Source: Alphaproteobacteria bacterium (GTDB taxonomy: Bacteria; Pseudomonadota; Alphaproteobacteria; Bin95). Taken from it: a stretch of DNA of 64,000 nucleotides. How positions within the stretch are numbered: the stretch's first letter is position 1; every line of letters starts with the position of its first letter. Position numbers and translations under genes: made by a program. The notes below the pieces were generated by a model. It made no database searches, was not told the DNA's origin, and worked only from the letters and a program-made list of their open reading frames with translations. The stretch is from contig OZ219787.1 in NCBI GenBank assembly GCA_964291285.2, positions 416,001 to 480,000 on the forward strand. The letters are read 5' to 3'. Positions 16,790 through 28,919 of the stretch are shown here, piece after piece.

Positions 16790-19700
16790 CTACCAGCGGA
16801 TCAACGATCGCAGCATCACGCCGTGATCGACGGACCCGTTATCGTTGGCGGCCTCGCGGCGCGTGGCGTCGAGACTGACCTCGAAGCCGGGGTCACCGCG
16901 CACCGCCGAGGTCAGCCGCCAGCCCATGCGGTACTCGCGCGCCGTCTCCGACATCCCGAGCCCGACGTTCGGCGTGCCGGTAAAGCCGCCGCCGAACAAG
17001 GCCATGCCGTAGCCGACCTCGGCGTCGAACCGGCTCGACGGCTCCGCGTCGCCGTTCGCCGTCAGCCCCGACGACGCGGGCAGCGCCCACAGCCGCTGCG
17101 AGCCCGCCGGGTCCACGCCCCAGGACGGCGTGAGCGACATCGACAGGCCACGCCCAGCGCCGCCCGGCACGAGTCGGAGCTGCCCCGACACGCCCCATTC
17201 GTCGTAGCCGTCTTGCGCATGCACCGCGAGGCCGTGCACCTTCAACGCCATGTCGAGGCCCCGCGACGGATCCGCGTAGCCGAGGCCGGCCCCGACCTCC
17301 AGGCCCGTCCCCGTCTCCGCGTCGCCCGCGTCATGGCGCACGCCCAGCTCGACCGAAGGCGTCAGCGCCGCGCCGCTCGCGAACGAGAAGGTGCGCGAGC
17401 CGTCGAGCATCGCCCGCACCCGGCTCGACTCGCCCCGCGCGCCCATCAGGCTGCCGAACTCCGAGGCCGTCACCCGGTCGGACTCCGTGCGCACCCAGAA
17501 CGCGTCCGCCTTCAGCGCCAGCGCGAACCCGCCGGGCTCGGCGGGCGTGAGCAGATCGCCCCGCACCCCCGTCGCCGCGAGCGTCATCGAGAGGTCCGTG
17601 CGGTAGCTCTGCGGCACCGCGCCGTGAAGGTCGAGGCTGAGGCGCCCCGAGCCCGTGCCCGCGAGCCCCCACACCGACACCCGGTCCGAGAGCGCGAGAC
17701 GCGCATAGGGCATCGCCATCGTCGCCGTGCTGCCGAGCGCGTAGCGCCAGCCCGCATCGCTCGCCGTGCCTTCGCCGACGCTGTGCGTCATCGCGAAGCC
17801 CATCAGCAGCCGGCCCCGCTCGTAGTCCATGCCCATCGAGCCCGTCGCCGCCTCGCCGGTGAGGCCCAGCCCCGGCACCGCCGCCGAGAACCGCGACACC
17901 GACGCGCCCTGGCCCCAGCTCGTCCACTGCGACCCGGCGCCCTGGCCGAGCACCGCCCGGAACGACGCGCCCAGCAGCAGCTCGCGCGCCGTCACCCGGC
18001 GTGCGCCGCTGACGGTGGCGGGATCGTTCCAGCCGCTGGTCAGGCCGTGCCGCACGAACGGGTCATCGTGGTCTGCCGCCGGCGCGGAAGGCGCGCCGAA
18101 GGTCTGCGCGAACCCCGTCAGCACCGTCGCCAGCGCCTCGCCGCCCTCGGCCTCGCCGAAGTTCATGCGCTGCCCCGCGACCGTCACGTGCGAGCCGGCG
18201 TCGCGCGGCGTCTCCAGCCGCGCCGTCACCGACGCGACCGCGTCCGAGGCCACCATGCGCCCGAAGCGCGCCAGCCACATCGCCTGCAGCGGGTCGGAAT
18301 TGCGGATCACGCCCTGCGTCTCGCGCTCCCCGGCCGCGAGCGTCGCGCCCTGCGGGTTCGAGAACCGCAGCAGGAAGTACTCCATCCCCTCGTCGATCGC
18401 GTCGTCGAGGATCGGTACCGAGACCGTCTTCCGCGTCTCGCCCGCCGCGAAGGTGAGCGTGCCCGAGGTCGCGGTGTAGTCCGCGCCCGACCGCGCCGGC
18501 GCCGCCCCCGCCCAGGCGTGGCTGGCGTCCGCGGTCGCGTAGTCCACCGTCACCGTCCCTGTGGCAGCTCGGCTCAGGCGTACCTGGAAGACCACCGCAG
18601 CGTCGGTCCCCTCCCGGGCGATGCCCCGCTTGGTCGCGATGTCCGGATTGTCCTCGTCGTTGTCGGCCACCGCCACCGTCGCGCGCGCCGCTGCGCCCAC
18701 CGTGTAGCCGGTGCCGCTCGCGACCGTCGCCACGATGCCGCCGTCCGCCTCGTCCGCGCCGTCGTTCACAGTCGCGACCGAGAAGGATGCCGATGCCGTC
18801 CCGGCCGGGATGGTCACCGTGCGCGTACCCAGCGCGGAGGCGTGCGCGAAGGCGCCCTGCTGGGCGACCGACACGGTGACCGCAAGGTCCGCCGCCGGTG
18901 CGGGCGAGGCCGTCAGCGTGAAGCCCGCCGACGCGCCTTCCGTCACCGGAGCGTTGCCCGCCACTGTGACTACCGGGGTTGACGTGCCGCCGCCCTCGAT
19001 CCCGCGCAGTGCCGCCGCTACCTCCACCCAGCGCGTCCAGCCCCGGTCCGCATAGCCCTGCGCCTCCGCCGCAGTCATCGGCTGGAGCGAGGAGTCGGAG
19101 ACGGACTGGCCGAGCACGAGCAGCACCCGGTCCCAGCGGTCCGTGTGCGCCTTGTTCGAACTGTAGCGCGGATCGTCGCGCCACCCCTGGACCTTCACGA
19201 TCAGCGTACCGTACTTCGCGGGCACCGTCACCACCGGGGTCGATGTGCCGCTGCCTTGCTGCGGGTCGTCGTCGCTGATCGTCACCTGCACCGAGGACGC
19301 CGTGCCCGCGGTCAGGCCCGAGGACAGGGTGCCAAGCGCCACCGTGAACGTCTCGTCGTCCCCGTCGGTGTCATCGCTCGTCGTAATCGTGCCCGAGGTC
19401 GACGTGCCGCCGGCGGGAATCGCGAGCGACGACAGGGTCCCGTGGTCCCCGTCCTCCGACGTGCCCCCGGTCACGGTCAGCGGAATCGTTACATCCTCCG
19501 ACAGCGCCTTCGCCAGCGTCGCCGTCACCGTGACCGACGATCCCTCGCCCACCGGGTTGGGAGTGGCCGAGAGCGTGACGGCGACCGCCGCCTCGCGCGT
19601 CACCGTCACCGTGTAGGTGCGCTTGTAACGCGCGTCCGGGGCCGTCACCACCACCGTGATCGTGTTCTCCCCCACGGCCAGCTGAACCGGCGTCGCCGGG

Positions 19701-19924
19701 TCGCCGCCGTTCACCGTCACCCGCGCCTTCGGGTTCTCGGGGCTCGCGGTCACCGTGACCTCGGTCACGTCGTGGGCCACCGTCGCGCTGTAGGTCTCGC
19801 GCTCCGGGTCGAACGCCTCGTTCAGGCTCACCTGCCCGCTTGTCGTGGCCCCGGCGCCCGTCGCGCCGGCCGCCATGCACAATGCCGCCGACAGCAGCAC
19901 CGCAATCCGTGCAATCCTCTTCAT
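16790..19924 (-). CDS. Autotransporter-like surface protein (cadherin-like and Calx-beta modules, C-terminal barrel)
   Basis: Signal peptide; AFDPERETYSATV...VGENTITVVVTA (cadherin-like); VTVDYATAD...DYTATSGTLTFAAGETRKTVSVPILDD (Calx-beta); WLARFGR linker; amphipathic strands ending in terminal W. Confidence 0.88.
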   Translation of the reverse strand: MKRIARIAVLLSAALCMAAGATGAGATTSGQVSLNEAFDPERETYSATVAHDVTEVTVTASPENPKARVTVNGGDPATPVQLAVGENTITVVVTAPDARYKRTYTVTVTREAAVAVTLSATPNPVGEGSSVTVTATLAKALSEDVTIPLTVTGGTSEDGDHGTLSSLAIPAGGTSTSGTITTSDDTDGDDETFTVALGTLSSGLTAGTASSVQVTISDDDPQQGSGTSTPVVTVPAKYGTLIVKVQGWRDDPRYSSNKAHTDRWDRVLLVLGQSVSDSSLQPMTAAEAQGYADRGWTRWVEVAAALRGIEGGGTSTPVVTVAGNAPVTEGASAGFTLTASPAPAADLAVTVSVAQQGAFAHASALGTRTVTIPAGTASASFSVATVNDGADEADGGIVATVASGTGYTVGAAARATVAVADNDEDNPDIATKRGIAREGTDAAVVFQVRLSRAATGTVTVDYATADASHAWAGAAPARSGADYTATSGTLTFAAGETRKTVSVPILDDAIDEGMEYFLLRFSNPQGATLAAGERETQGVIRNSDPLQAMWLARFGRMVASDAVASVTARLETPRDAGSHVTVAGQRMNFGEAEGGEALATVLTGFAQTFGAPSAPAADHDDPFVRHGLTSGWNDPATVSGARRVTARELLLGASFRAVLGQGAGSQWTSWGQGASVSRFSAAVPGLGLTGEAATGSMGMDYERGRLLMGFAMTHSVGEGTASDAGWRYALGSTATMAMPYARLALSDRVSVWGLAGTGSGRLSLDLHGAVPQSYRTDLSMTLAATGVRGDLLTPAEPGGFALALKADAFWVRTESDRVTASEFGSLMGARGESSRVRAMLDGSRTFSFASGAALTPSVELGVRHDAGDAETGTGLEVGAGLGYADPSRGLDMALKVHGLAVHAQDGYDEWGVSGQLRLVPGGAGRGLSMSLTPSWGVDPAGSQRLWALPASSGLTANGDAEPSSRFDAEVGYGMALFGGGFTGTPNVGLGMSETAREYRMGWRLTSAVRGDPGFEVSLDATRREAANDNGSVDHGVMLRSLIRW

Positions 19925-19936
19925 CGGACAGATCCC

Positions 19937-21037
19937 CTAATTTCCGGTATTCATTTGAAGATCGCGCAGCCGGGGGTTCGCGTTGTCGACGATCGTGACC
20001 GTGACCACGGACGATGGGCCCGACACCACGTCGCGAGCCACCGTGGGGTTAAACTCCCCGGGGACCGTGACCATGGACCATGTGCCCACCGCCACGCCCG
20101 ACGGCAGGTTCGCCGTGTCCACCGCCACCGTGAACCGCTCGTCGTCGGGGTCGTCGTCCGGGTACGTTTTGATCGTGCCCGACCCGCTCGTCGAGCCGGC
20201 GTTGATCCTAATGCCCCTGAGGAACCCGCGGTCGCCCGCCTCCGACGTGTCCCACGTCACCACGAGCGGGATCTCCACGGCGTTCGCCAGCGGCTTCGTC
20301 AGAGTCACCTGCAACTGCACCGGCGAACCCTCGGCCACCGTGTTGCGCACCGCCCGCAGCGACACCACCGGGCGGGGGCGGAGGTCCTTGATCGTCACCT
20401 CGACCGAGGTCGTGGCGCCCGCCGTCAACCCCGACGGCAGCGCGCCCAGCGCCACCGTGAAGGTCTCGTTGTCCCCGTCGCTGTCCTGGTGCGTCGGCAA
20501 GGCGACCACGCCGCAGCTGCGCTGAATGGAGCCGTCGATGGGGATGGAGTACCCCGTGCGGATCGGCAGGCGGCCGTTCGTGTGGCCCGATAGCGAGATC
20601 CCCCAGTCGCCGTTCTCCGAGGTGCCGTGGCTCACCACTACCGGAATGCGCACCGTGCCCGTTGGCACCACCGCCCGCAACCCGCTTCCGTCCTTCAGGC
20701 AGGCCGTCACGCCCAACCACTTGCCCTCCGTCACCGGGTTGGGGGAGGCGGAGAGGGTGACGGTCTGCGCCTCCGCTGGCGTGGCCGTGAAAGGCGAGAG
20801 CGCACCGAGCAGCAGTGCGAGAGCGGGAAGGAGGCGGAGTAGGCGGACGCGGGAGCGCCCGGGACGAGGGTCAGGCCGGGCGGGGGCCCGCGGAACCGCC
20901 CTGGCTGACGCCGGGGAACGCGAACGGGTGGAAGAGGCCGATCCGGGCGCGCCCGACTCCTTGCGCGGAGAATCCGCCATGACGCCGAACAGGGGCTTGT
21001 CGGTACATTCAGTAAGGCCGAACACGTTCGCCTCCAC
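19937..21037 (-). CDS. Secreted protein with two Calx-beta-like modules and no anchor (true start uncertain)
   Basis: Hydrophobic signal LLPALALLLGALSPFTATPAEA; modules homologous to those of the downstream gene (TLSASPNPVTEG...DGDNETFTVALG). Confidence 0.75.
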   Translation of the reverse strand: MEANVFGLTECTDKPLFGVMADSPRKESGAPGSASSTRSRSPASARAVPRAPARPDPRPGRSRVRLLRLLPALALLLGALSPFTATPAEAQTVTLSASPNPVTEGKWLGVTACLKDGSGLRAVVPTGTVRIPVVVSHGTSENGDWGISLSGHTNGRLPIRTGYSIPIDGSIQRSCGVVALPTHQDSDGDNETFTVALGALPSGLTAGATTSVEVTIKDLRPRPVVSLRAVRNTVAEGSPVQLQVTLTKPLANAVEIPLVVTWDTSEAGDRGFLRGIRINAGSTSGSGTIKTYPDDDPDDERFTVAVDTANLPSGVAVGTWSMVTVPGEFNPTVARDVVSGPSSVVTVTIVDNANPRLRDLQMNTGN

Positions 21038-21045
21038 TTTCCGCC

Positions 21046-21079
21046 ATTACGCGCGATAACTGTCGCTATCGCGCGTAAT
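21046..21079. other. lox-like recombination site L (13-8-13)
   Basis: ATTACGCGCGATA-ACTGTCGC-TATCGCGCGTAAT: perfect 13-bp inverted arms with an asymmetric spacer, 38 bp upstream of the recombinase ORF. Confidence 0.85.
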
Positions 21080-21117
21080 CCGGGGCTCCTGTGTGCGGAC
21101 GGTTTGGAGGCCCCTGA

Positions 21118-22101
21118 ATGTTCCTTGAACCCCCGTTCAACACTTCGGAGGAGCCGGCGGCGGGCCGGGAACCCGCGCTGGAGGAGCAGCTCGAGCACTT
21201 TGTCCGGGCGGCCCGCGGCGCGTTCAGCGGCAGCACCGAGCGGGCCTTGAGGTCCGATCTCGCCATCTACGCCGAGTGGTGCGGGGAGTGCGGGGAACGG
21301 GCGCTGCCGGCCACGCCCGAGACGATCGCCGCCTTCGTCGACGCAAAGGCGGAACTGCGCGCGCCCGCCACGGTGCGCCGCTACGTCACCAGCATCGGCA
21401 TTGCCCACCGGGCGCTGGGGCTGGAGAAGACGGTGAAGAGCGCGCCGGTGCGGCTGGCGCTCAAGCGCATGCACCGGAAGAAGGGACGTCGCCAGGACCA
21501 GGCGACGGGACTGACCTGGCCGCTGCGCCAGCGCCTGCTGGAAGCGGCGGGGGACAGATTGCTCGACGACCGCAACCGCGCGCTGCTCGCCGTCGCCTAC
21601 GACGCGATGCTGCGCCGGGCGGAGCTGGTTGCACTGCAAGTCCCTGACTTGCTTGGGGAAGTGCGGGGCGAGGGCAGCCTGCTGGTGCGCCGCTCCAAGA
21701 CCGATTGCGAAGGCCGGGGCGAGATCGTCTGGGTCGGGCGGGACACCGTCCGGCTGGTCCGGGCGTGGCTCGACTGCGCCGGAATATCCGACGGCATGCT
21801 GTTTCGCGCGGTCCGCAAGGGCGGTCGGGTCGGGGGGCGGCTGAATCCCTGCGAGGTGTCGCGCATCCTCAAGGCGATGGCGCGCGAGGCCGGCCTGCCG
21901 GAGACGGTTGTGGCGGGCCTGTCGGGCCACAGCACCCGGGTTGGCGCGGCCCAGGACATGGTCGCGGCCGGCATCGAGCTGCCGGCGATCCTGCACGCCG
22001 GCCGGTGGAAATCCACGGCCATGGTCAACCGCTACGGCGAGCGGCTGCTCGCGAAGCGCAGCGGGGCGGCCCAGCTCGCCCGGATGCAGGGAAGGGGCTG
22101 A
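21118..22101 (+). CDS. Cre-like tyrosine recombinase
   Basis: Catalytic set intact: LRRAEL (R), RSKTD (K), SGHSTRVGAA (HxxR), GRW (W, as in Cre), VNRY (Y); N-terminal core-binding domain with PATVRRY. Confidence 0.95.
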   Translation: MFLEPPFNTSEEPAAGREPALEEQLEHFVRAARGAFSGSTERALRSDLAIYAEWCGECGERALPATPETIAAFVDAKAELRAPATVRRYVTSIGIAHRALGLEKTVKSAPVRLALKRMHRKKGRRQDQATGLTWPLRQRLLEAAGDRLLDDRNRALLAVAYDAMLRRAELVALQVPDLLGEVRGEGSLLVRRSKTDCEGRGEIVWVGRDTVRLVRAWLDCAGISDGMLFRAVRKGGRVGGRLNPCEVSRILKAMAREAGLPETVVAGLSGHSTRVGAAQDMVAAGIELPAILHAGRWKSTAMVNRYGERLLAKRSGAAQLARMQGRG

Positions 22102-22402
22102 GACACGCCGGGGGGTGTACGGAAACGGCCGCCGGGCTATGATGCTCCGGCGGCCGGAACGTGCCGCAATGGCGGATCGGCGGGCAGAATCGGGTCCGCG
22201 AACGCCCGGCAGTTCCAGATCCGGAAAATGCTATCGCGCACAAAAACCGGCGGGTCCGGCGGCCCCGGCAGCCTGCCGACATGTCCCGGACAGGGCCAGA
22301 AAATCCCCGAATAATCGCTGTAATTCAACGGGTTGTCGTCCGAGGGAAGCGGGGTGTCGTGTCCTGCCGCGGATCGGGCGAAGCGCCGGGTACGAAAGCC
22401 GG

Positions 22403-22431
22403 TTGACAATTTTATGCGCGATAGCGACAGC
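22403..22431 (+). promoter_or_regulatory. Candidate outward-facing sigma-70 promoter overlapping lox-like site R
   Basis: Perfect TTGACA at 22403..22408; the hexamer at 17-bp spacing (GACAGC) is a poor -10 in this orientation. Confidence 0.35.
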
Positions 22432-22444
22432 TATCGCGCATAAA
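22411..22444. other. lox-like recombination site R (13-8-13), inverted relative to site L
   Basis: TTTATGCGCGATA-GCGACAGC-TATCGCGCATAAA; arms 11/13 identical to site L; core CGACAG is the reverse complement of site L core CTGTCG. Confidence 0.85.
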
Positions 22445-23242
22445 ACGGCGCGGCGGAATCCGACCTTGCGCCACCCCCGGGACGGCGCAAGTTATTGTCT
22501 TCGCGTCACTTTCAGGTTCCGAACGCTCGCTCTGCTGCCTGATCGGCGTCGTCCACGCGCCACAGGCTGATATCACGCCGGGAACAGGGGCGCCTGCGGT
22601 GCTTCGGAAACGAAAACGCTGCGCACGGCTGCCCGTGCGCGGCGCTGCTGTCGAGGCCGGGGCTGTGCTCCGGAACCCGCTACCCGGGTCCGGCGGGGGC
22701 GGACCGCAGAACCGGGCGCGGCGTTCCGTTTTTCGGCTGCCTGGGCTTCGTGCGCACATCTCCCGACTATTCCCTGTCTCCGCAGGCGCGCGTCCGCGGA
22801 GGATGCGCTTCAGGTGTCAGGTGGGAACGCGGTAGCTTGCATCCAGTTGCATTTTTCAATGCGATCCATTGGCGATGCTTATCCGCGAGTGCCGCAGCGA
22901 AGCCGGACCGGACTTCGCGTTCTCCCTTCTCCGCTCCCCCTTGTTAGCGAACCCGGGTCCGCATGGATAATGCCGGTCGCCAGAACATTCATGCGCACGC
23001 GGCATGCCGCGAGGCCGGAGTGTATGGCGCCGCCACGGATCGCGCGTCCCCAATCTGGGGGAGACTCCGGAAGAATTTGCGCGGCGTTTCGGCGAATTGC
23101 ACGAAGACGCATGCCCCCGGCGCCGCCTCGCGGCCTCCACTTTGCCGAGGCCCCGGCCCAGCACCCGCAGTAGATGCCGGGCAAGGCATGTCCGGAAACT
23201 CCATACCGCGTGTCAGGAAACGCACCGCCCACTTCGCTATGA

Positions 23243-24694
23243 GGTCGTGTCCCCAGGGGTGGTGTAGGAGCTGAAGCTTCCGGTGGTAGCTGTGGGTAAG
23301 TGGCCCGCCGCCGCGACCGTCTGGAGTCAGGCGGCGGCGGGCCACTTACCCACAGCGGAGGCCATCGCGGTGCCGGTTAGGGTTGGGCTGTCACAGTCCA
23401 CCTGACCGGAGGAGTACCACGATGACCACCACCGACATGATGACCCTGCGGGCGCTGTTGGAGAAGAGTTCCGACGCCGACCTGCTTCGCGAGATGATCG
23501 GGTTCACGGCCGCGCGTCTGATGGCGCTTGAGGTTGAGGGCCTTGCGGGCGCCGCGCACGGCGAGCGCTCGCCGGACCGGATCACGCAGCGCAACGGCTA
23601 CCGGGACCGGGTCTGGGAGACGCGGGCCGGCACGGTCGAACTGAAGATCCCGAAGCTGCGCAAGGGGAGCTACTTCCCGGGCTTCCTTGAACCGCGGCGG
23701 ATGGCGGAGAAGGCGCTGACGGCGGTGATCCAGGAGGCCTACATCAAGGGCGTATCGACCCGCTCGGTGGACGACCTGGTGCAGGCGATGGGCATGTCGG
23801 GCATCTCCAAGAGCCAGGTGTCGCGGCTGTGCGGCGAGATCGACGACAAGATCCGCGACTTCCTCGACCGGCCGCTGGAGGGCGACTGGCCGTATCTCTG
23901 GCTTGACGCGACCTATGTGAAGATGCGCGAGGCCGGGCGCGTCGTCTCGGTCGCGGTCACCATCGCGGTGGCGGTCAACGATCAGGGCCGGCGCGAGGTG
24001 CTCGGCATGGCGATCGGCGCGTCCGAGGCCGAGACCTTCTGGACCGACTTCCTGCGCTCGCTCGCCCGCCGCGGCCTGCGCGGCGTCAAGCTGGTGATCT
24101 CCGACGACCACAAGGGCCTGAAGGCCGCCGCCACCCGCATCTTCGGCGCCACCTGGCAGAGATGCCGCGTCCACTTCATGCGCAACCTGCTCGCCCATGC
24201 CGGCAAGCAGGGCCGGCGCGTCGTCTCCGCCTTCGTCACTACCGCCTTCGCCCAGGAGGATGCAGACAGCGCCTCCGCCCAGTGGCGCCAGGTCGCCGAC
24301 CAGCTCAGGCCCAAGGCGCCAAAGCTCGCCGCCATCATGGACGAGGCCGAGCACGATGTTCTCGCCTACATGACCTTCCCGGCCGCGCACCGCGCCAAGC
24401 TGCACTCGACAAACCCGCTCGAACGCCTCCACGGCGAGATCAAGCGGCGCACAAACACCGTCGGCATCTTCCCCAACGAGGACGCCATCACCCGGCTGAT
24501 CGGCGCAATCCTGCTCGAGCAGAACGATGAATGGGCAGTCCAGAGAGCCAGATACATGACGCTGGAATCCATCGCTCCCGTGAGCGACAATACAACCGTC
24601 AAGTTGCCCGCCGTGGCAGCCTGAGCGTTCCGGCCCTACCCGCCGGACACCGCTACGGACGCCAGGCTCTTACACCACCCGCGGGGGCACGATC
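23243..24694 (+). mobile_element. IS256-family element, copy 1 (1452 bp)
   Basis: Imperfect ~29-bp IRs (GGTCGTGTCCCC / GATCGTGCCCCC); 8-bp TSD CGCTATGA at 23235..23242 and 24695..24702. Confidence 0.95.
23422..24624 (+). CDS. IS256-family transposase
   Basis: [30 protein letters not shown] and STNPLER motifs. Confidence 0.97.
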
Positions 24695-25042: not shown

Positions 25043-26494
25043 GATCGTGCCCCCGCGGGTGGTGTAAGAGCCTGGCGTCCGTAGCGGTGTCCGGCGGGTA
25101 GGGCCGGAACGCTCAGGCTGCCACGGCGGGCAACTTGACGGTTGTATTGTCGCTCACGGGAGCGATGGATTCCAGCGTCATGTATCTGGCTCTCTGGACT
25201 GCCCATTCATCGTTCTGCTCGAGCAGGATTGCGCCGATCAGCCGGGTGATGGCGTCCTCGTTGGGGAAGATGCCGACGGTGTTTGTGCGCCGCTTGATCT
25301 CGCCGTGGAGGCGTTCGAGCGGGTTTGTCGAGTGCAGCTTGGCGCGGTGCGCGGCCGGGAAGGTCATGTAGGCGAGAACATCGTGCTCGGCCTCGTCCAT
25401 GATGGCGGCGAGCTTTGGCGCCTTGGGCCTGAGCTGGTCGGCGACCTGGCGCCACTGGGCGGAGGCGCTGTCTGCATCCTCCTGGGCGAAGGCGGTAGTG
25501 ACGAAGGCGGAGACGACGCGCCGGCCCTGCTTGCCGGCATGGGCGAGCAGGTTGCGCATGAAGTGGACGCGGCATCTCTGCCAGGTGGCGCCGAAGATGC
25601 GGGTGGCGGCGGCCTTCAGGCCCTTGTGGTCGTCGGAGATCACCAGCTTGACGCCGCGCAGGCCGCGGCGGGCGAGCGAGCGCAGGAAGTCGGTCCAGAA
25701 GGTCTCGGCCTCGGACGCGCCGATCGCCATGCCGAGCACCTCGCGCCGGCCCTGATCGTTGACCGCCACCGCGATGGTGACCGCGACCGAGACGACGCGC
25801 CCGGCCTCGCGCATCTTCACATAGGTCGCGTCAAGCCAGAGATACGGCCAGTCGCCCTCCAGCGGCCGGTCGAGGAAGTCGCGGATCTTGTCGTCGATCT
25901 CGCCGCACAGCCGCGACACCTGGCTCTTGGAGATGCCCGACATGCCCATCGCCTGCACCAGGTCGTCCACCGAGCGGGTCGATACGCCCTTGATGTAGGC
26001 CTCCTGGATCACCGCCGTCAGCGCCTTCTCCGCCATCCGCCGCGGTTCAAGGAAGCCCGGGAAGTAGCTCCCCTTGCGCAGCTTCGGGATCTTCAGTTCG
26101 ACCGTGCCGGCCCGCGTCTCCCAGACCCGGTCCCGGTAGCCGTTGCGCTGCGTGATCCGGTCCGGCGAGCGCTCGCCGTGCGCGGCGCCCGCAAGGCCCT
26201 CAACCTCAAGCGCCATCAGACGCGCGGCCGTGAACCCGATCATCTCGCGAAGCAGGTCGGCGTCGGAACTCTTCTCCAACAGCGCCCGCAGGGTCATCAT
26301 GTCGGTGGTGGTCATCGTGGTACTCCTCCGGTCAGGTGGACTGTGACAGCCCAACCCTAACCGGCACCGCGATGGCCTCCGCTGTGGGTAAGTGGCCCGC
26401 CGCCGCCTGACTCCAGACGGTCGCGGCGGCGGGCCACTTACCCACAGCTACCACCGGAAGCTTCAGCTCCTACACCACCCCTGGGGACACGACC
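25043..26494 (-). mobile_element. IS256-family element, copy 2 (1452 bp)
   Basis: Same IRs as copy 1; its own 8-bp TSD TCCGCTCC at 25035..25042 and 26495..26502. Confidence 0.95.
25113..26315 (-). CDS. IS256-family transposase
   Basis: Translation identical to copy 1. Confidence 0.97.
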
Positions 26495-26905
26495 TCCGCT
26501 CCCGCCACCAATACTGATCTCGTTCCGCTGTACAATCTGCGTTTTATTTTCATTATGCAGGATTGCGGCGACTCTTGCCGGGGCGCGAAAAGTCAAGCTT
26601 ATTCCGTATGTTATGGCGCGCGCGCAAGCCGCCGGGCCCATAGCCGGTCTTCATGCCGGAAGGGGCGAAATTCAGCTGCTGACCACGACTGGCCCTTCAT
26701 GACCTTGATGTCGAATTTCTGATCGTGCCCCTCGCGTACTGGGCAAATCAATTCCGCTTCCGCCTGTCCGACCCCAGAGGCCCACTCCATGTGGTGGCGC
26801 AAATATGTACCATGGGCGCGGCCGTAACTTATCCCAGTAGTTCAAGGCAGAGTCTGCGGGCTTGGTCAGCGATGGAACATGCCTTGCTAGGGTTCTGACA
26901 GTTAG

Positions 26906-28919
26906 CCCGACTTCCGCAACTCGGCTTGAGAATCGACTGATTTGACGGTTTTCCGGCGCGAGAAGTGTCGGATTTCGGTGCAGTACCTCTCGGGACCGGC
27001 TTGTAGTGCCGACCTACCCCCTTGATCGGGCTGGCGAAGATCCGGACGCTGCGCTGATGTTCGTGCGCTGCAAGAGACGCTTCAAGGACGGCAAGGAGCA
27101 CCGCTACTGGAGCGTTGTGGAGAACGTCCGGGTCCACGGCGGTCGGGTTGTTCAGCGTCAGGTGCTCTATCTCGGGGAGATCAACGACAGCCAGCGAGCG
27201 GCGTGGTGCCGCTCGATCGAGGTGGTGGAGGGCAAGTCGCGATCACGGCAGATGGCGCTGTTTCCCGAGGACCGGGAGGCGCCGGCGCTGACTTGCGAAG
27301 TGGTGAAGATCGACCTCTCGCAGGTGGCGCTTCACGACCCGCGCCAGTGGGGGGCGTGCTGGCTGGCGCTGTCCTTGTGGGACCGCCTGGACCTGGACCG
27401 CTTCTGGGAAGAGCGGCTGCCGGCGAGCCGGCAAGGCACGCGGTGGCTGGACATCCTGAAGATCCAGGTCTGCTACCGGCTGATCGACCCGGGCAGCGAG
27501 TGGCGCCTTCACCGTCACTGGTATGAGCACAGCGCGCTTCGCGATCTTCTGGGTGGCGAGCGGGCGATCGCCGACGACACACTCTATCGCTGTCTCGACA
27601 AGCTGCTGGCGCACAAGCAGGGCTTCTTCTCGTTTCTGCGCGACCGCTGGGCGACGCTGTTCGAGGCGCGCTTCGACGTGCTGCTCTACGACCTGACCTC
27701 GACCTACTTCGAGAGCGATCCGCCGTTCGATGACAAGCGCCGCTTCGGCTACAGCCGGGACAAGCGGCCCGACTGCGTGCAGGTGGTGATCGCCCTGATC
27801 GTTACGCCGCAGGGCTTTCCGCTGGCCTATGAGGTGATGCCGGGCAACACCTCCGACGACACCACGCTGGCGGCGTTCCTCAAGAAGATCGAGGATCAGT
27901 ATGGCCGCTCCGAGCGGGTGTGGATCATGGACCGCGGCATCCCCACCGAGGAGACGCTGGCCGCGATGCGCGAGGGCGAGGCGCCGGTGCGCTACCTGGT
28001 GGGCACGCCCAAGGGCCGGCTGACGCGGCTCGAGAAGGTGTTCCTGGGCCTGCCCCGGCAGGAGGTGCGCCAGTCCGTGACTGTCAAGCTTCTGGTCGAG
28101 GATGGCGAGCTCTACGTCCTGGTGCGCAGCGAGGGGCGGCAGGTGAAGGAACGCGGCATGCGCCGGCGCCGGCTGAAGAGGCTGTGGCGTCGATTGGCCG
28201 AGTTGCAAGGGCAGTCGAACAGCCGGGATCAGTTGTTGCTCAAGCTCGGCGCCGCCAGGAAGGAGGCCGGCCGGGCCTGGAGCCTGGTCGACATCACCGT
28301 GCCCGGGACCGACAGCGAACTCGCCGCCAACGGCTTCTCATTCCGCCTGCAGCGCGACCGGCTGCGCCAGGTCCGCCGCCGCGAGGGCCGTTACCTGCTG
28401 CGATCCAACATGGTCGCCGAAGACCCCGCCACGCTGTGGCATCTGTACATGCAGCTCGTCGAGATCGAGCAGGCGTTCAAGGAACTCAAGCACGACCTCG
28501 CGATCCGCCCCATCTTCCATCAGCGCCAAGAGCGCATCGAGGCGCATATCTTCGTCTCGTTCATCGCCTACTGCCTGCTGGTGACCCTGAAGAACCTCGC
28601 CCGGCCGCGCGCCCCGGGCCTCACCCCACGCGCCATCCTTGAGGCCTTCGCCACCATCCAGATGGTGGACGTCCATCTGCCAACCACCGACGGCCGGCAC
28701 CTCGTCCTGCCGCGCCACACCCGGCCGAACAAGGAGCACGAGCTACTGCTGCAACAGCTCGGCATGACCTGGCCGCAGCAACCCGCACCCCGGATCTCCG
28801 CCTGACGGCACACGGCGCCGCCTCTCCGTTCGCCGCCTTGTAGTGCCGACCCTCGGGGAGACGATCAAGGCTATTCAATGAGTTAGCATCCTCATGACCC
28901 CCGAGTTGCGGAAGTCGGG
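26906..28919 (+). mobile_element. IS1634-family element A
   Basis: Perfect 19-bp IRs CCCGACTTCCGCAACTCGG; flanks GTTAG and ATAGC do not match, so no TSD. Confidence 0.9.
27057..28805 (+). CDS. IS1634-family transposase
   Basis: LYDLTSTYFE, GYSRDKRPD, IMDRG, IEQAFKELK and RPIFHQ motifs. Confidence 0.95.
   Translation: MFVRCKRRFKDGKEHRYWSVVENVRVHGGRVVQRQVLYLGEINDSQRAAWCRSIEVVEGKSRSRQMALFPEDREAPALTCEVVKIDLSQVALHDPRQWGACWLALSLWDRLDLDRFWEERLPASRQGTRWLDILKIQVCYRLIDPGSEWRLHRHWYEHSALRDLLGGERAIADDTLYRCLDKLLAHKQGFFSFLRDRWATLFEARFDVLLYDLTSTYFESDPPFDDKRRFGYSRDKRPDCVQVVIALIVTPQGFPLAYEVMPGNTSDDTTLAAFLKKIEDQYGRSERVWIMDRGIPTEETLAAMREGEAPVRYLVGTPKGRLTRLEKVFLGLPRQEVRQSVTVKLLVEDGELYVLVRSEGRQVKERGMRRRRLKRLWRRLAELQGQSNSRDQLLLKLGAARKEAGRAWSLVDITVPGTDSELAANGFSFRLQRDRLRQVRRREGRYLLRSNMVAEDPATLWHLYMQLVEIEQAFKELKHDLAIRPIFHQRQERIEAHIFVSFIAYCLLVTLKNLARPRAPGLTPRAILEAFATIQMVDVHLPTTDGRHLVLPRHTRPNKEHELLLQQLGMTWPQQPAPRISA

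Follow-up and report, generated by a model that had tools for sequence, protein, structure and literature searches.

A Cre-type recombinase gene between two inverted lox-like sites: a candidate invertible switch beside adhesin-like genes of an alphaproteobacterium

Introduction

What is the role of a Cre-type recombinase whose gene lies on a bacterial chromosome between two inverted lox-like sites, next to genes for large surface proteins? The question is raised by a 64-kb stretch of DNA with 68% G+C (the window), taken from an alphaproteobacterial genome of 6.1 Mb in 5 contigs, in which a left site (L) and a right site (R) enclose the recombinase gene. An earlier interpretation made from the letters of the window (the sequence-only reading) proposed a phase-variation switch for the adjoining surface proteins. 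We compared the locus with its relatives in public genomes and metagenomes and, on balance, lean towards the view that it is a self-contained invertible switch of the Cre/lox type, strongly biased to one orientation, which controls a large adhesin-like gene.

Results

Two lox-like sites enclose a Cre-type recombinase gene

The two sites, L at 21046-21079 and R at 22411-22444 (neither assigned to a strand), are perfect lox-like elements of 13-8-13 geometry. L reads ATTACGCGCGATA-ACTGTCGC-TATCGCGCGTAAT with ACTGTCGC as its spacer, and R, which is inverted relative to L, reads TTTATGCGCGATA-GCGACAGC-TATCGCGCATAAA with the spacer GCGACAGC. Each site has perfect arms, and the arms of L and R are identical at 11 of 13 positions. 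The central 6 bp, CTGTCG in L and CGACAG in R, are exact reverse complements, and the sole mismatch between the L spacer and the reverse complement of the R spacer is the base adjoining the outer arms. R is also a perfect 16-4-16 palindrome, and L is a 15-4-15 palindrome with one mismatch; both are perfectly palindromic in the present orientation alone. Perfect-armed 13-8-13 sites, 11/13 arm identity and identical, inverted 6-bp cores had all been described in the sequence-only reading, and positions and letters were confirmed throughout when they were re-read.

When the entire window was scanned exhaustively for inverted repeats with perfect arms (11-16 nucleotides, nt; gaps of 0-12), L and R were the only perfect palindromes with arms of at least 11 nt. 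Because these two alone were returned, they are not a chance feature of 68% G+C DNA. A motif search of the whole 6.1 Mb that allowed up to four arm asymmetries recovered the window pair, the pair around a second copy of the recombinase gene (C4:608228 and C4:609593), a single site beside a truncated copy (C3:1415190) and three unrelated-looking places. Between L and R lie a recombinase open reading frame (ORF) of 327 amino acids (aa) and 309 nt of non-coding DNA, and nothing else, in agreement with the intact Cre-type recombinase and ~310 bp of non-coding DNA reported before. A lone third half-site, TATCGCGCACAAA, which had been overlooked, is located inside the segment at 22232-22244 and could act as an accessory site for the enzyme.

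The recombinase is encoded on the + strand at 21118-22101, with its start 38 nt past L and a GGAG ahead of the start. It belongs to Pfam family PF00589. In a search of PDB, residues 28-316 aligned to residues 30-333 of Cre (E 6.9e-27, 97.8 bits), and the next structure of a different kind, a XerC-like protein, followed at E 0.0086. The catalytic residues R167, K194, H271, R274, W297 and Y306, counterparts of Cre R173, K201, H289, R292, W315 and Y324, are invariant in all 38 full-length relatives, every one of which has an open frame. The enzyme therefore combines the traits of the Cre type, namely the catalytic hexad, similarity over both domains at a length of 300-400 aa and a 13-8-13 target near the gene. 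The six catalytic residues and the full-length Cre alignment bear out the earlier statement that it is Cre-type and intact. Its nearest annotated relatives, at 47-52% identity, are found on plasmids of Methylobacterium, Methylorubrum, Lichenicola and others.

The cores of L and R co-vary among related loci

A scan of one genome per species gave 38 loci encoding relatives of the recombinase, in metagenome-assembled genomes (MAGs) labelled Alphaproteobacteria, Rhodospirillales, Defluviicoccus, Pseudomonadales, Gammaproteobacteria and Longimicrobiales. The gene is present in 7 of 16 other genomes of the same genus and in 0 of 20 across the two other genera of the family, and one MAG carries 8 full and 2 partial copies at 76-91% identity. 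The sequence-only reading had suggested scanning the flanks of homologous recombinases for paired sites. When this was done, both sites were present at 30 loci. At 26 public genome loci, 2 metagenome loci and the second copy in this genome, the sites stand at the places seen in the window, ~38 nt ahead of the start and ~310 nt past the stop.

With the pattern used, one site or none was found at L016, L017, L025, L029, L031 and L044, and likewise at L024 within the set distance limit; several of these seven loci are interrupted by contig ends or by an inserted ORF. At L024 a second site with a matching core lies 2.6 kb off, beyond an extra 418-aa ORF. One MAG contains both L024 and L025, and at each of them the 418-aa ORF separates the recombinase gene from the place expected for R; its orientation is opposite at the two loci.

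At 30 of 30 two-site loci the 6-bp centre of L is the exact reverse complement of that of R, and this is so across 11 versions of the core: CTGTCG (14 loci), CTATTA (3), CTGTTG (3), CTATCG (2), CTGTCA (2) and six singletons. Outside the core the match is looser, with arms that often differ between L and R (0-6 asymmetries per site) and an outermost spacer base that differs in 17 loci. Spacer homology is required for strand exchange, as established for Cre. PMC11260471 appears to agree with this requirement. Because the identity is confined to the 6-bp crossover region and persists through many changes, we infer that L and R exchange strands with each other; since the cores are inverted, the product of an L x R exchange would be inversion. 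This co-variation is the main support for the inversion idea and argues for real recombination between L and R. Operators, hairpins and transposon ends offer no reason for it. Different cores also coexist within genomes: this one has CTGTCG and CTTTCA, and the multi-copy MAG has at least 4 cores, with some copies sharing one.

Most loci have the standard architecture, in which the recombinase gene and a non-coding tail lie between the sites. The metagenome locus L046 is arranged differently. Here the recombinase gene lies outside, in convergent orientation, and a ~320-bp non-coding segment with a TTGACA end is placed between two inverted sites, GCTGTGAT and ATCACAGT, adjoining an adhesin-like gene whose product has a classical signal peptide. 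A textbook invertible promoter is laid out in this way, which points to the non-coding segment as the working payload.

Adhesin-like genes begin beside L

The first gene by L is an ORF of up to 366 aa on the - strand (19937-21037; ORF list) with a signal-peptide-like stretch and weak Pfam hints. Its candidate starts are GTG at 21037, GTG at 21025 (5 nt after a GGAGG) and ATG at 20981, and depending on the start codon it begins 8-64 nt outside L. The second gene of this unit, also on the - strand (16790-19924; ORF list, Pfam), encodes 1044 aa with a cadherin-like beta-sandwich and a Calx-beta domain, and its product is predicted to be a large surface or adhesin-like protein. The third-codon-position G+C of this gene is 0.93, and its DNA is ~80-84% identical to the equivalent flank of L004 and L006.

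A large gene at this place is common among the 30 evaluable loci. At 17 of them an ORF of at least 700 aa starts no more than 400 nt from L and reads away from it, and at 4 further loci (the window, L004, L006 and L018) an ORF of at least 700 aa lies farther along the same strand, which gives 21 in total. Of the eight large proteins tested, seven contain domains of the fn3, cadherin, Calx-beta, SWM-repeat, He_PIG or SRCR families, combined in various ways. A regulated gene that begins beside one repeat, as in known invertons, is thus found in the window and, in the form of a large gene, at 21 of the 30 loci, with 7 loci lacking one. The sequence-only reading placed L against the 5' end of the surface-protein genes. 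This holds, with the ORF beginning from 8 nt outside L, and the link is kept across many loci in at least three bacterial groups.

The coding DNA on this side also contains diverged direct repeats at 19270-20500 (~330, 790 and 1110 nt apart), which lie within and between the two surface-protein ORFs and correspond to repeated domains. Beyond the surface-protein genes of the window are ordinary housekeeping genes.

Some relatives carry (CCTG)n tracts 74-89 nt outside the site, with 17 units at L010 (also L057), 14 at L018 (also L059), 5 at L013 and 12 at L046. Each tract separates the site from the start of the large gene, which bears the signal peptide, and has conserved sequence on both sides; the window copy has no tract. 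Short tandem tracts of this kind are classic slippage devices. The (CCTG)n tract is likely a slipped-strand phase-variation device and a second hint that these genes vary.

The inner non-coding segment and the R side

The non-coding inner segment (22102-22410, + strand) contains a stem-loop right after the stop codon, the lone half-site, a promoter-like match and a TTGACA. The half-site lies 177-180 nt ahead of R in 24 of 30 loci. In the window the TTGACA, at 22404-22409, faces outward two bases from R, and an outward TTGACA within 12 nt of R is found in 26 of 30 loci. A consensus scan detected a promoter-like CGGACA-17-AATAAT at 22287-22315 facing R; shuffled sequence gives similar numbers, and the totals of the scan (one promoter-like and two terminator-like matches) are close to the shuffled-sequence count. 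The spacer at L, read on the gene strand, is NNNANAGT in 26 of 30 loci, and the spacer at R ends in C in 20 of 30. Because of this difference in the spacer base between L and R, a -10-like hexamer with a final T would be completed only after inversion in 16 loci.

Outside R is a conserved stretch of ~700 nt with hairpins (22445-23150, + strand), homologous in most related loci from the first base past R. Within it, at 22714-22735, is a terminator-like site. The summed bits are similar in the six frames (1964-2212), and because no reading frame is preferred we regard the stretch as non-coding. No Pfam family was found in its ORFs, and a search of 20000-23400 against Rfam gave no credible family, with four matches that all fell far below gathering scores. 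A structured RNA in the first 300 nt outside R was considered and set aside as unsupported: the consensus fold had 68 pairs, 5 of them with compensatory changes, and a covariation of +0.14. Past the conserved stretch the genes are unrelated among loci and include those for a topoisomerase, a LuxR-type protein, an AAA protein, AbiU2, a methyltransferase, an autotransporter and others.

In the window the conserved stretch is ended by an insertion sequence (IS) at 23241. This is one of two IS256/Mutator-family copies (23241-24694 and 25043-26496), which are 1454 nt each, 100% identical, inverted and 348 nt apart. Each encodes a 413-aa transposase, and towards one end of each copy there is a perfect 26-nt hairpin (23289-23356 in the first, 26381-26448 in the second). 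Just right of the pair, at 27006-28805, follows a gene for a 599-aa DDE transposase (PF01609), and the region right of R is IS-rich. IS256/Mutator-family elements also adjoin the second and the truncated recombinase copy of this genome (at C4:606614-607879 and C3:1416087-1417328, respectively).

Other copies in this genome

The second full copy (L066) occupies C4:608228-609626, with its recombinase, 85% identical to that of the window, at C4:608574-609554. Its site arms are nearly those of the window, and its core is CTTTCA/TGAAAG. No adhesin gene adjoins this copy, which lies near an IS256-family transposase, a TrwC relaxase, a LysR fragment and a porin. The third locus (L041, C3:1415190-1415791) consists of a truncated recombinase (residues 234-327) and one degenerate site (spacer ACTTTCAT), with an IS256-family element alongside. 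It is probably a copy destroyed by IS insertion.

Discussion

Observations that weigh against a switch

As in known invertons, inverted repeats here bound a short segment, and a recombinase gene lies within it or next to it. A number of observations nevertheless weigh against the interpretation of the locus as an invertible switch, and several of these come from the search for inverted forms. A single orientation is present in all assemblies: the 29 public and own loci match left-to-left and right-to-right, with two cross matches of 70 bp and 35 bp. Six of the seven metagenome contigs with the gene have the standard arrangement, the seventh being L046 with its different layout. A metagenome scan for either orientation (TTGACA plus a site) returned 13 stretches, of which 6 were chance-like or without a recombinase, and none was flipped. 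Out of 23 runs listed, none of them RNA, four (X1-X4) were examined as contigs; no strand-changing joint at L or R was detected in these contigs, which lose rare variants. Branch points that did appear in the run contigs (a loose end at 21047 and a diverged joint skipping 301) belong to the second copy in this genome. Both orientations, as expected of an inverton in a population or among strains, were therefore not seen, in what is a weak test, as consensus assemblies and contigs hide minor forms. The arm patterns of the sites were also inspected as footprints of past inversions and were uninformative. Of the two 34-mers predicted for the hybrid junctions, one occurs naturally as the R site of L002, so that a search of reads needs flanking sequence for specificity.

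Other points concern the genes and the promoter. No large gene lies by L in 7 loci (L012, L014, L021, L027, L028, L034 and the second copy in this genome). In relatives the signal-peptide-bearing start of the adhesin gene is 60-650 nt from L, a distance that could accommodate a fixed promoter outside the switch. The consensus promoter scan did not call the TTGACA by R, where the hexamer 17 nt on is GACAGC, and the promoter inside the segment is accordingly putative. Two loci (L028 and L062) have a short architecture, with the gene and ~58 bp between the sites and no TTGACA, that is without obvious payload. Finally, the patchy, multi-copy and cross-phylum spread shows that the unit moves between genomes, and this also fits a mobile element.

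How the proposed switch would work

The phase-variation proposal of the sequence-only reading thus stands in part. The enzyme, the lox geometry, the link to surface genes and the core co-variation at 30 of 30 loci speak for it, and no inverted form in assemblies or contigs does. Its proviso that inversion may be rare or biased is consistent with the single orientation everywhere. If the segment flips, the equilibrium must lie far to one side, because the orientation is constant among the assemblies. Several known inversion switches are strongly biased to one orientation.

In the mechanism that we propose, recombinase dimers would bind L and R and then synapse, and strands would be exchanged within the identical, oppositely oriented 6-bp cores. 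This would flip the 1.4-kb segment with the recombinase gene and its 309-nt non-coding tail. The assembled orientation would be OFF, with the TTGACA end pointing into the conserved non-coding, terminator-bearing stretch past R. The inverted orientation would be ON, with the TTGACA end abutting L and reading into the surface-protein gene, and the switch would be strongly biased to the assembled state. The data show the anatomy of the locus, the class of its enzyme, and the conservation, core co-variation and adhesin association of the module; the inversion itself, the identity of the ON orientation and the position of the promoter are what we infer.

Alternative explanations

Patchiness in the genus, the 8 full and 2 partial copies in one MAG and the occurrence of the module in MAGs of Alphaproteobacteria, Pseudomonadales and Longimicrobiales would also be expected if L and R were true recombination sites whose main role is the mobility or exchange of the module, with or without the adhesin gene, and inversion were a side reaction. 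The same explanation would accommodate the unrelated genes past the conserved right flank, the adhesin genes of very different domain content that all begin at L, the relaxase and IS context of the second copy and the constant orientation in all assemblies. We consider it unlikely. Integration by a tyrosine recombinase leaves direct, not inverted, repeats of the site, and the repeats here are inverted. Homology of both flanks among the copies extends as far as the sites, which means that a mobile unit does not end at L and R. There are no further sites of this kind elsewhere in the genome, and the mirror identity of the L and R cores would be left without a reason. The constant orientation bears equally on a relic or locked switch, one whose architecture goes back to an inversion switch or to a duplicated single plasmid-type site and that now has no meaningful inversion rate here. 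The window sites, perfect palindromes in their present orientation alone, and the insertion sequences that crowd the right flank at all three loci of this genome fit this picture as well. On the other hand, the recombinase is intact, with its catalytic residues in 38 of 38 relatives, both window sites are flawless, and co-variation of the cores across 11 variants needs continued selection; we rate a locked switch as quite unlikely.

The palindromes might instead be operators, for the recombinase-like protein or for another factor, or RNA or DNA hairpins, and function without strand exchange. L does lie between two divergent genes, 38 nt ahead of the recombinase start, R is a perfect 16-4-16 hairpin, and a half-site at a fixed distance from R is operator-like. 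Neither binding nor a hairpin, however, needs mirrored asymmetric centres, yet the centres are mirrored in 30 of 30 loci, and the catalytic hexad is conserved throughout, which makes this explanation improbable. We have rejected, as very improbable, the view that the 1.4-kb unit from L to R is a small transposon bounded by 34-bp terminal inverted repeats and using a tyrosine transposase. Its ends do look identical when read from outside, and some genomes carry multiple copies. The copies nevertheless share flanks that are homologous from the first base outside both sites, and neither target duplications nor unrelated flanks were seen. An integron-like layout (divergent recombinase, site, captured genes) was also rejected, as no more sites follow the L-side genes in the window or elsewhere in the genome. 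Weighed together with these alternatives, a biased invertible switch remains the interpretation that we favour.

Implications

A broader proposal is offered tentatively, and with considerable doubt: a horizontally spread 'lox-inverton' family in sponge, coral and marine bacteria, in which a Cre-type enzyme flips its own gene and thereby switches giant adhesins. The promoter would be split across the crossover site, with the -35 element (TTGACA) moving with the segment and the spacer lying 17 nt on. Slippage of (CCTG)n would form a second layer of control on the same genes. Differing spacer cores would insulate the switches, letting near-identical recombinases run several of them per genome without scrambling the chromosome.

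Should the switch prove real, it would provide a native role for chromosomal Cre-type recombinases and would point to phase-variable giant adhesins in hard-to-culture, host-associated marine bacteria. The loci would also represent a natural series of recombinases and sites that spans 11 spacer cores and several variants of the arms, already tested by evolution for compatibility with one another, and this could aid orthogonal genome engineering.

Comparison with known systems

The native role of Cre is plasmid-prophage maintenance. With Cre/loxP of phage P1 and with Vika, Dre, Nigri, Panto and the pairs of PMC10250229, the enzyme described here shares near-full-length alignment to Cre, the residues R K H R W Y, 13-8-13 geometry and a site within 1 kb of the gene. 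It differs in its low identity to Cre, its own arm and spacer sequences and the two inverted sites around the gene. The known systems have a single nearby site and belong to phages or plasmids, whereas this one is chromosomal and tied to adhesin-like genes. In the screen of PMC10250229, Cre-type genes were paired with single 13-15/8 palindromes within 1 kb, with ~50% success. Our literature search found no natural switch that combines a Cre-type enzyme with two complete lox-like sites and the enzyme gene inside, and the ~500 predicted pairs of PMC10250229 may include relatives.

Among plasmid homologues, the 'tyrosine-type recombinase/integrase' of Methylorubrum extorquens DM4 p1METDI (L065) is likewise preceded by a palindrome, ATTGCCTGCGATA-ACACCATC-TATCGCGGGAAAT, ~38 nt ahead of the gene. 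Unlike the window, p1METDI has one site, with no other of up to 2 asymmetries within 4 kb. The neighbours of this gene and of that on the Lichenicola cladoniae plasmid (L064) are toxin-antitoxin genes, not adhesin genes, and both enzymes are likely plasmid-maintenance recombinases. Because the plasmid homologue (such homologues being at most 52% identical) has a single site, paired inverted sites are the derived arrangement, and the switch type may derive from enzymes of this kind.

To our knowledge, inversion switches of surface proteins use Hin-type serine enzymes or small integrase-family tyrosine enzymes on short repeats. The gene for Hin lies within the invertible segment together with an outward promoter, and Hin requires an enhancer and Fis. 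Hin/hix of Salmonella therefore resembles the layout proposed here, a recombinase gene inside an invertible segment with an outward promoter for a surface-structure gene; it differs in that Hin is a serine recombinase dependent on enhancer and Fis, whereas the enzyme here belongs to the Cre-type tyrosine recombinases and its lox-like sites are full. In another respect the proposed layout resembles Flp/FRT of the yeast 2-micron plasmid, where a tyrosine recombinase gene lies between inverted sites of 13-8-13 type and its enzyme inverts its own segment. That system belongs to a eukaryotic plasmid, its inversion serves 2-micron copy-number amplification, and it has no sequence relation to the present one beyond the superfamily.

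The fimS (FimB/FimE), ipuS, Bacteroides and Clostridioides switches resemble L046, with a short inverted-repeat segment beside a recombinase gene and control of surface proteins. Enzymes of the fimS type are small members of the integrase family whose target repeats are short and which often depend on host factors, whereas the enzyme here is Cre-type and its repeats are complete two-arm sites. For ipuS, PMC6083910 describes control of the autotransporter UpaE by the element with IpuA and IpuB. In contrast to the fimS-type switches, at most of the loci described here the enzyme's own gene would flip together with the segment.

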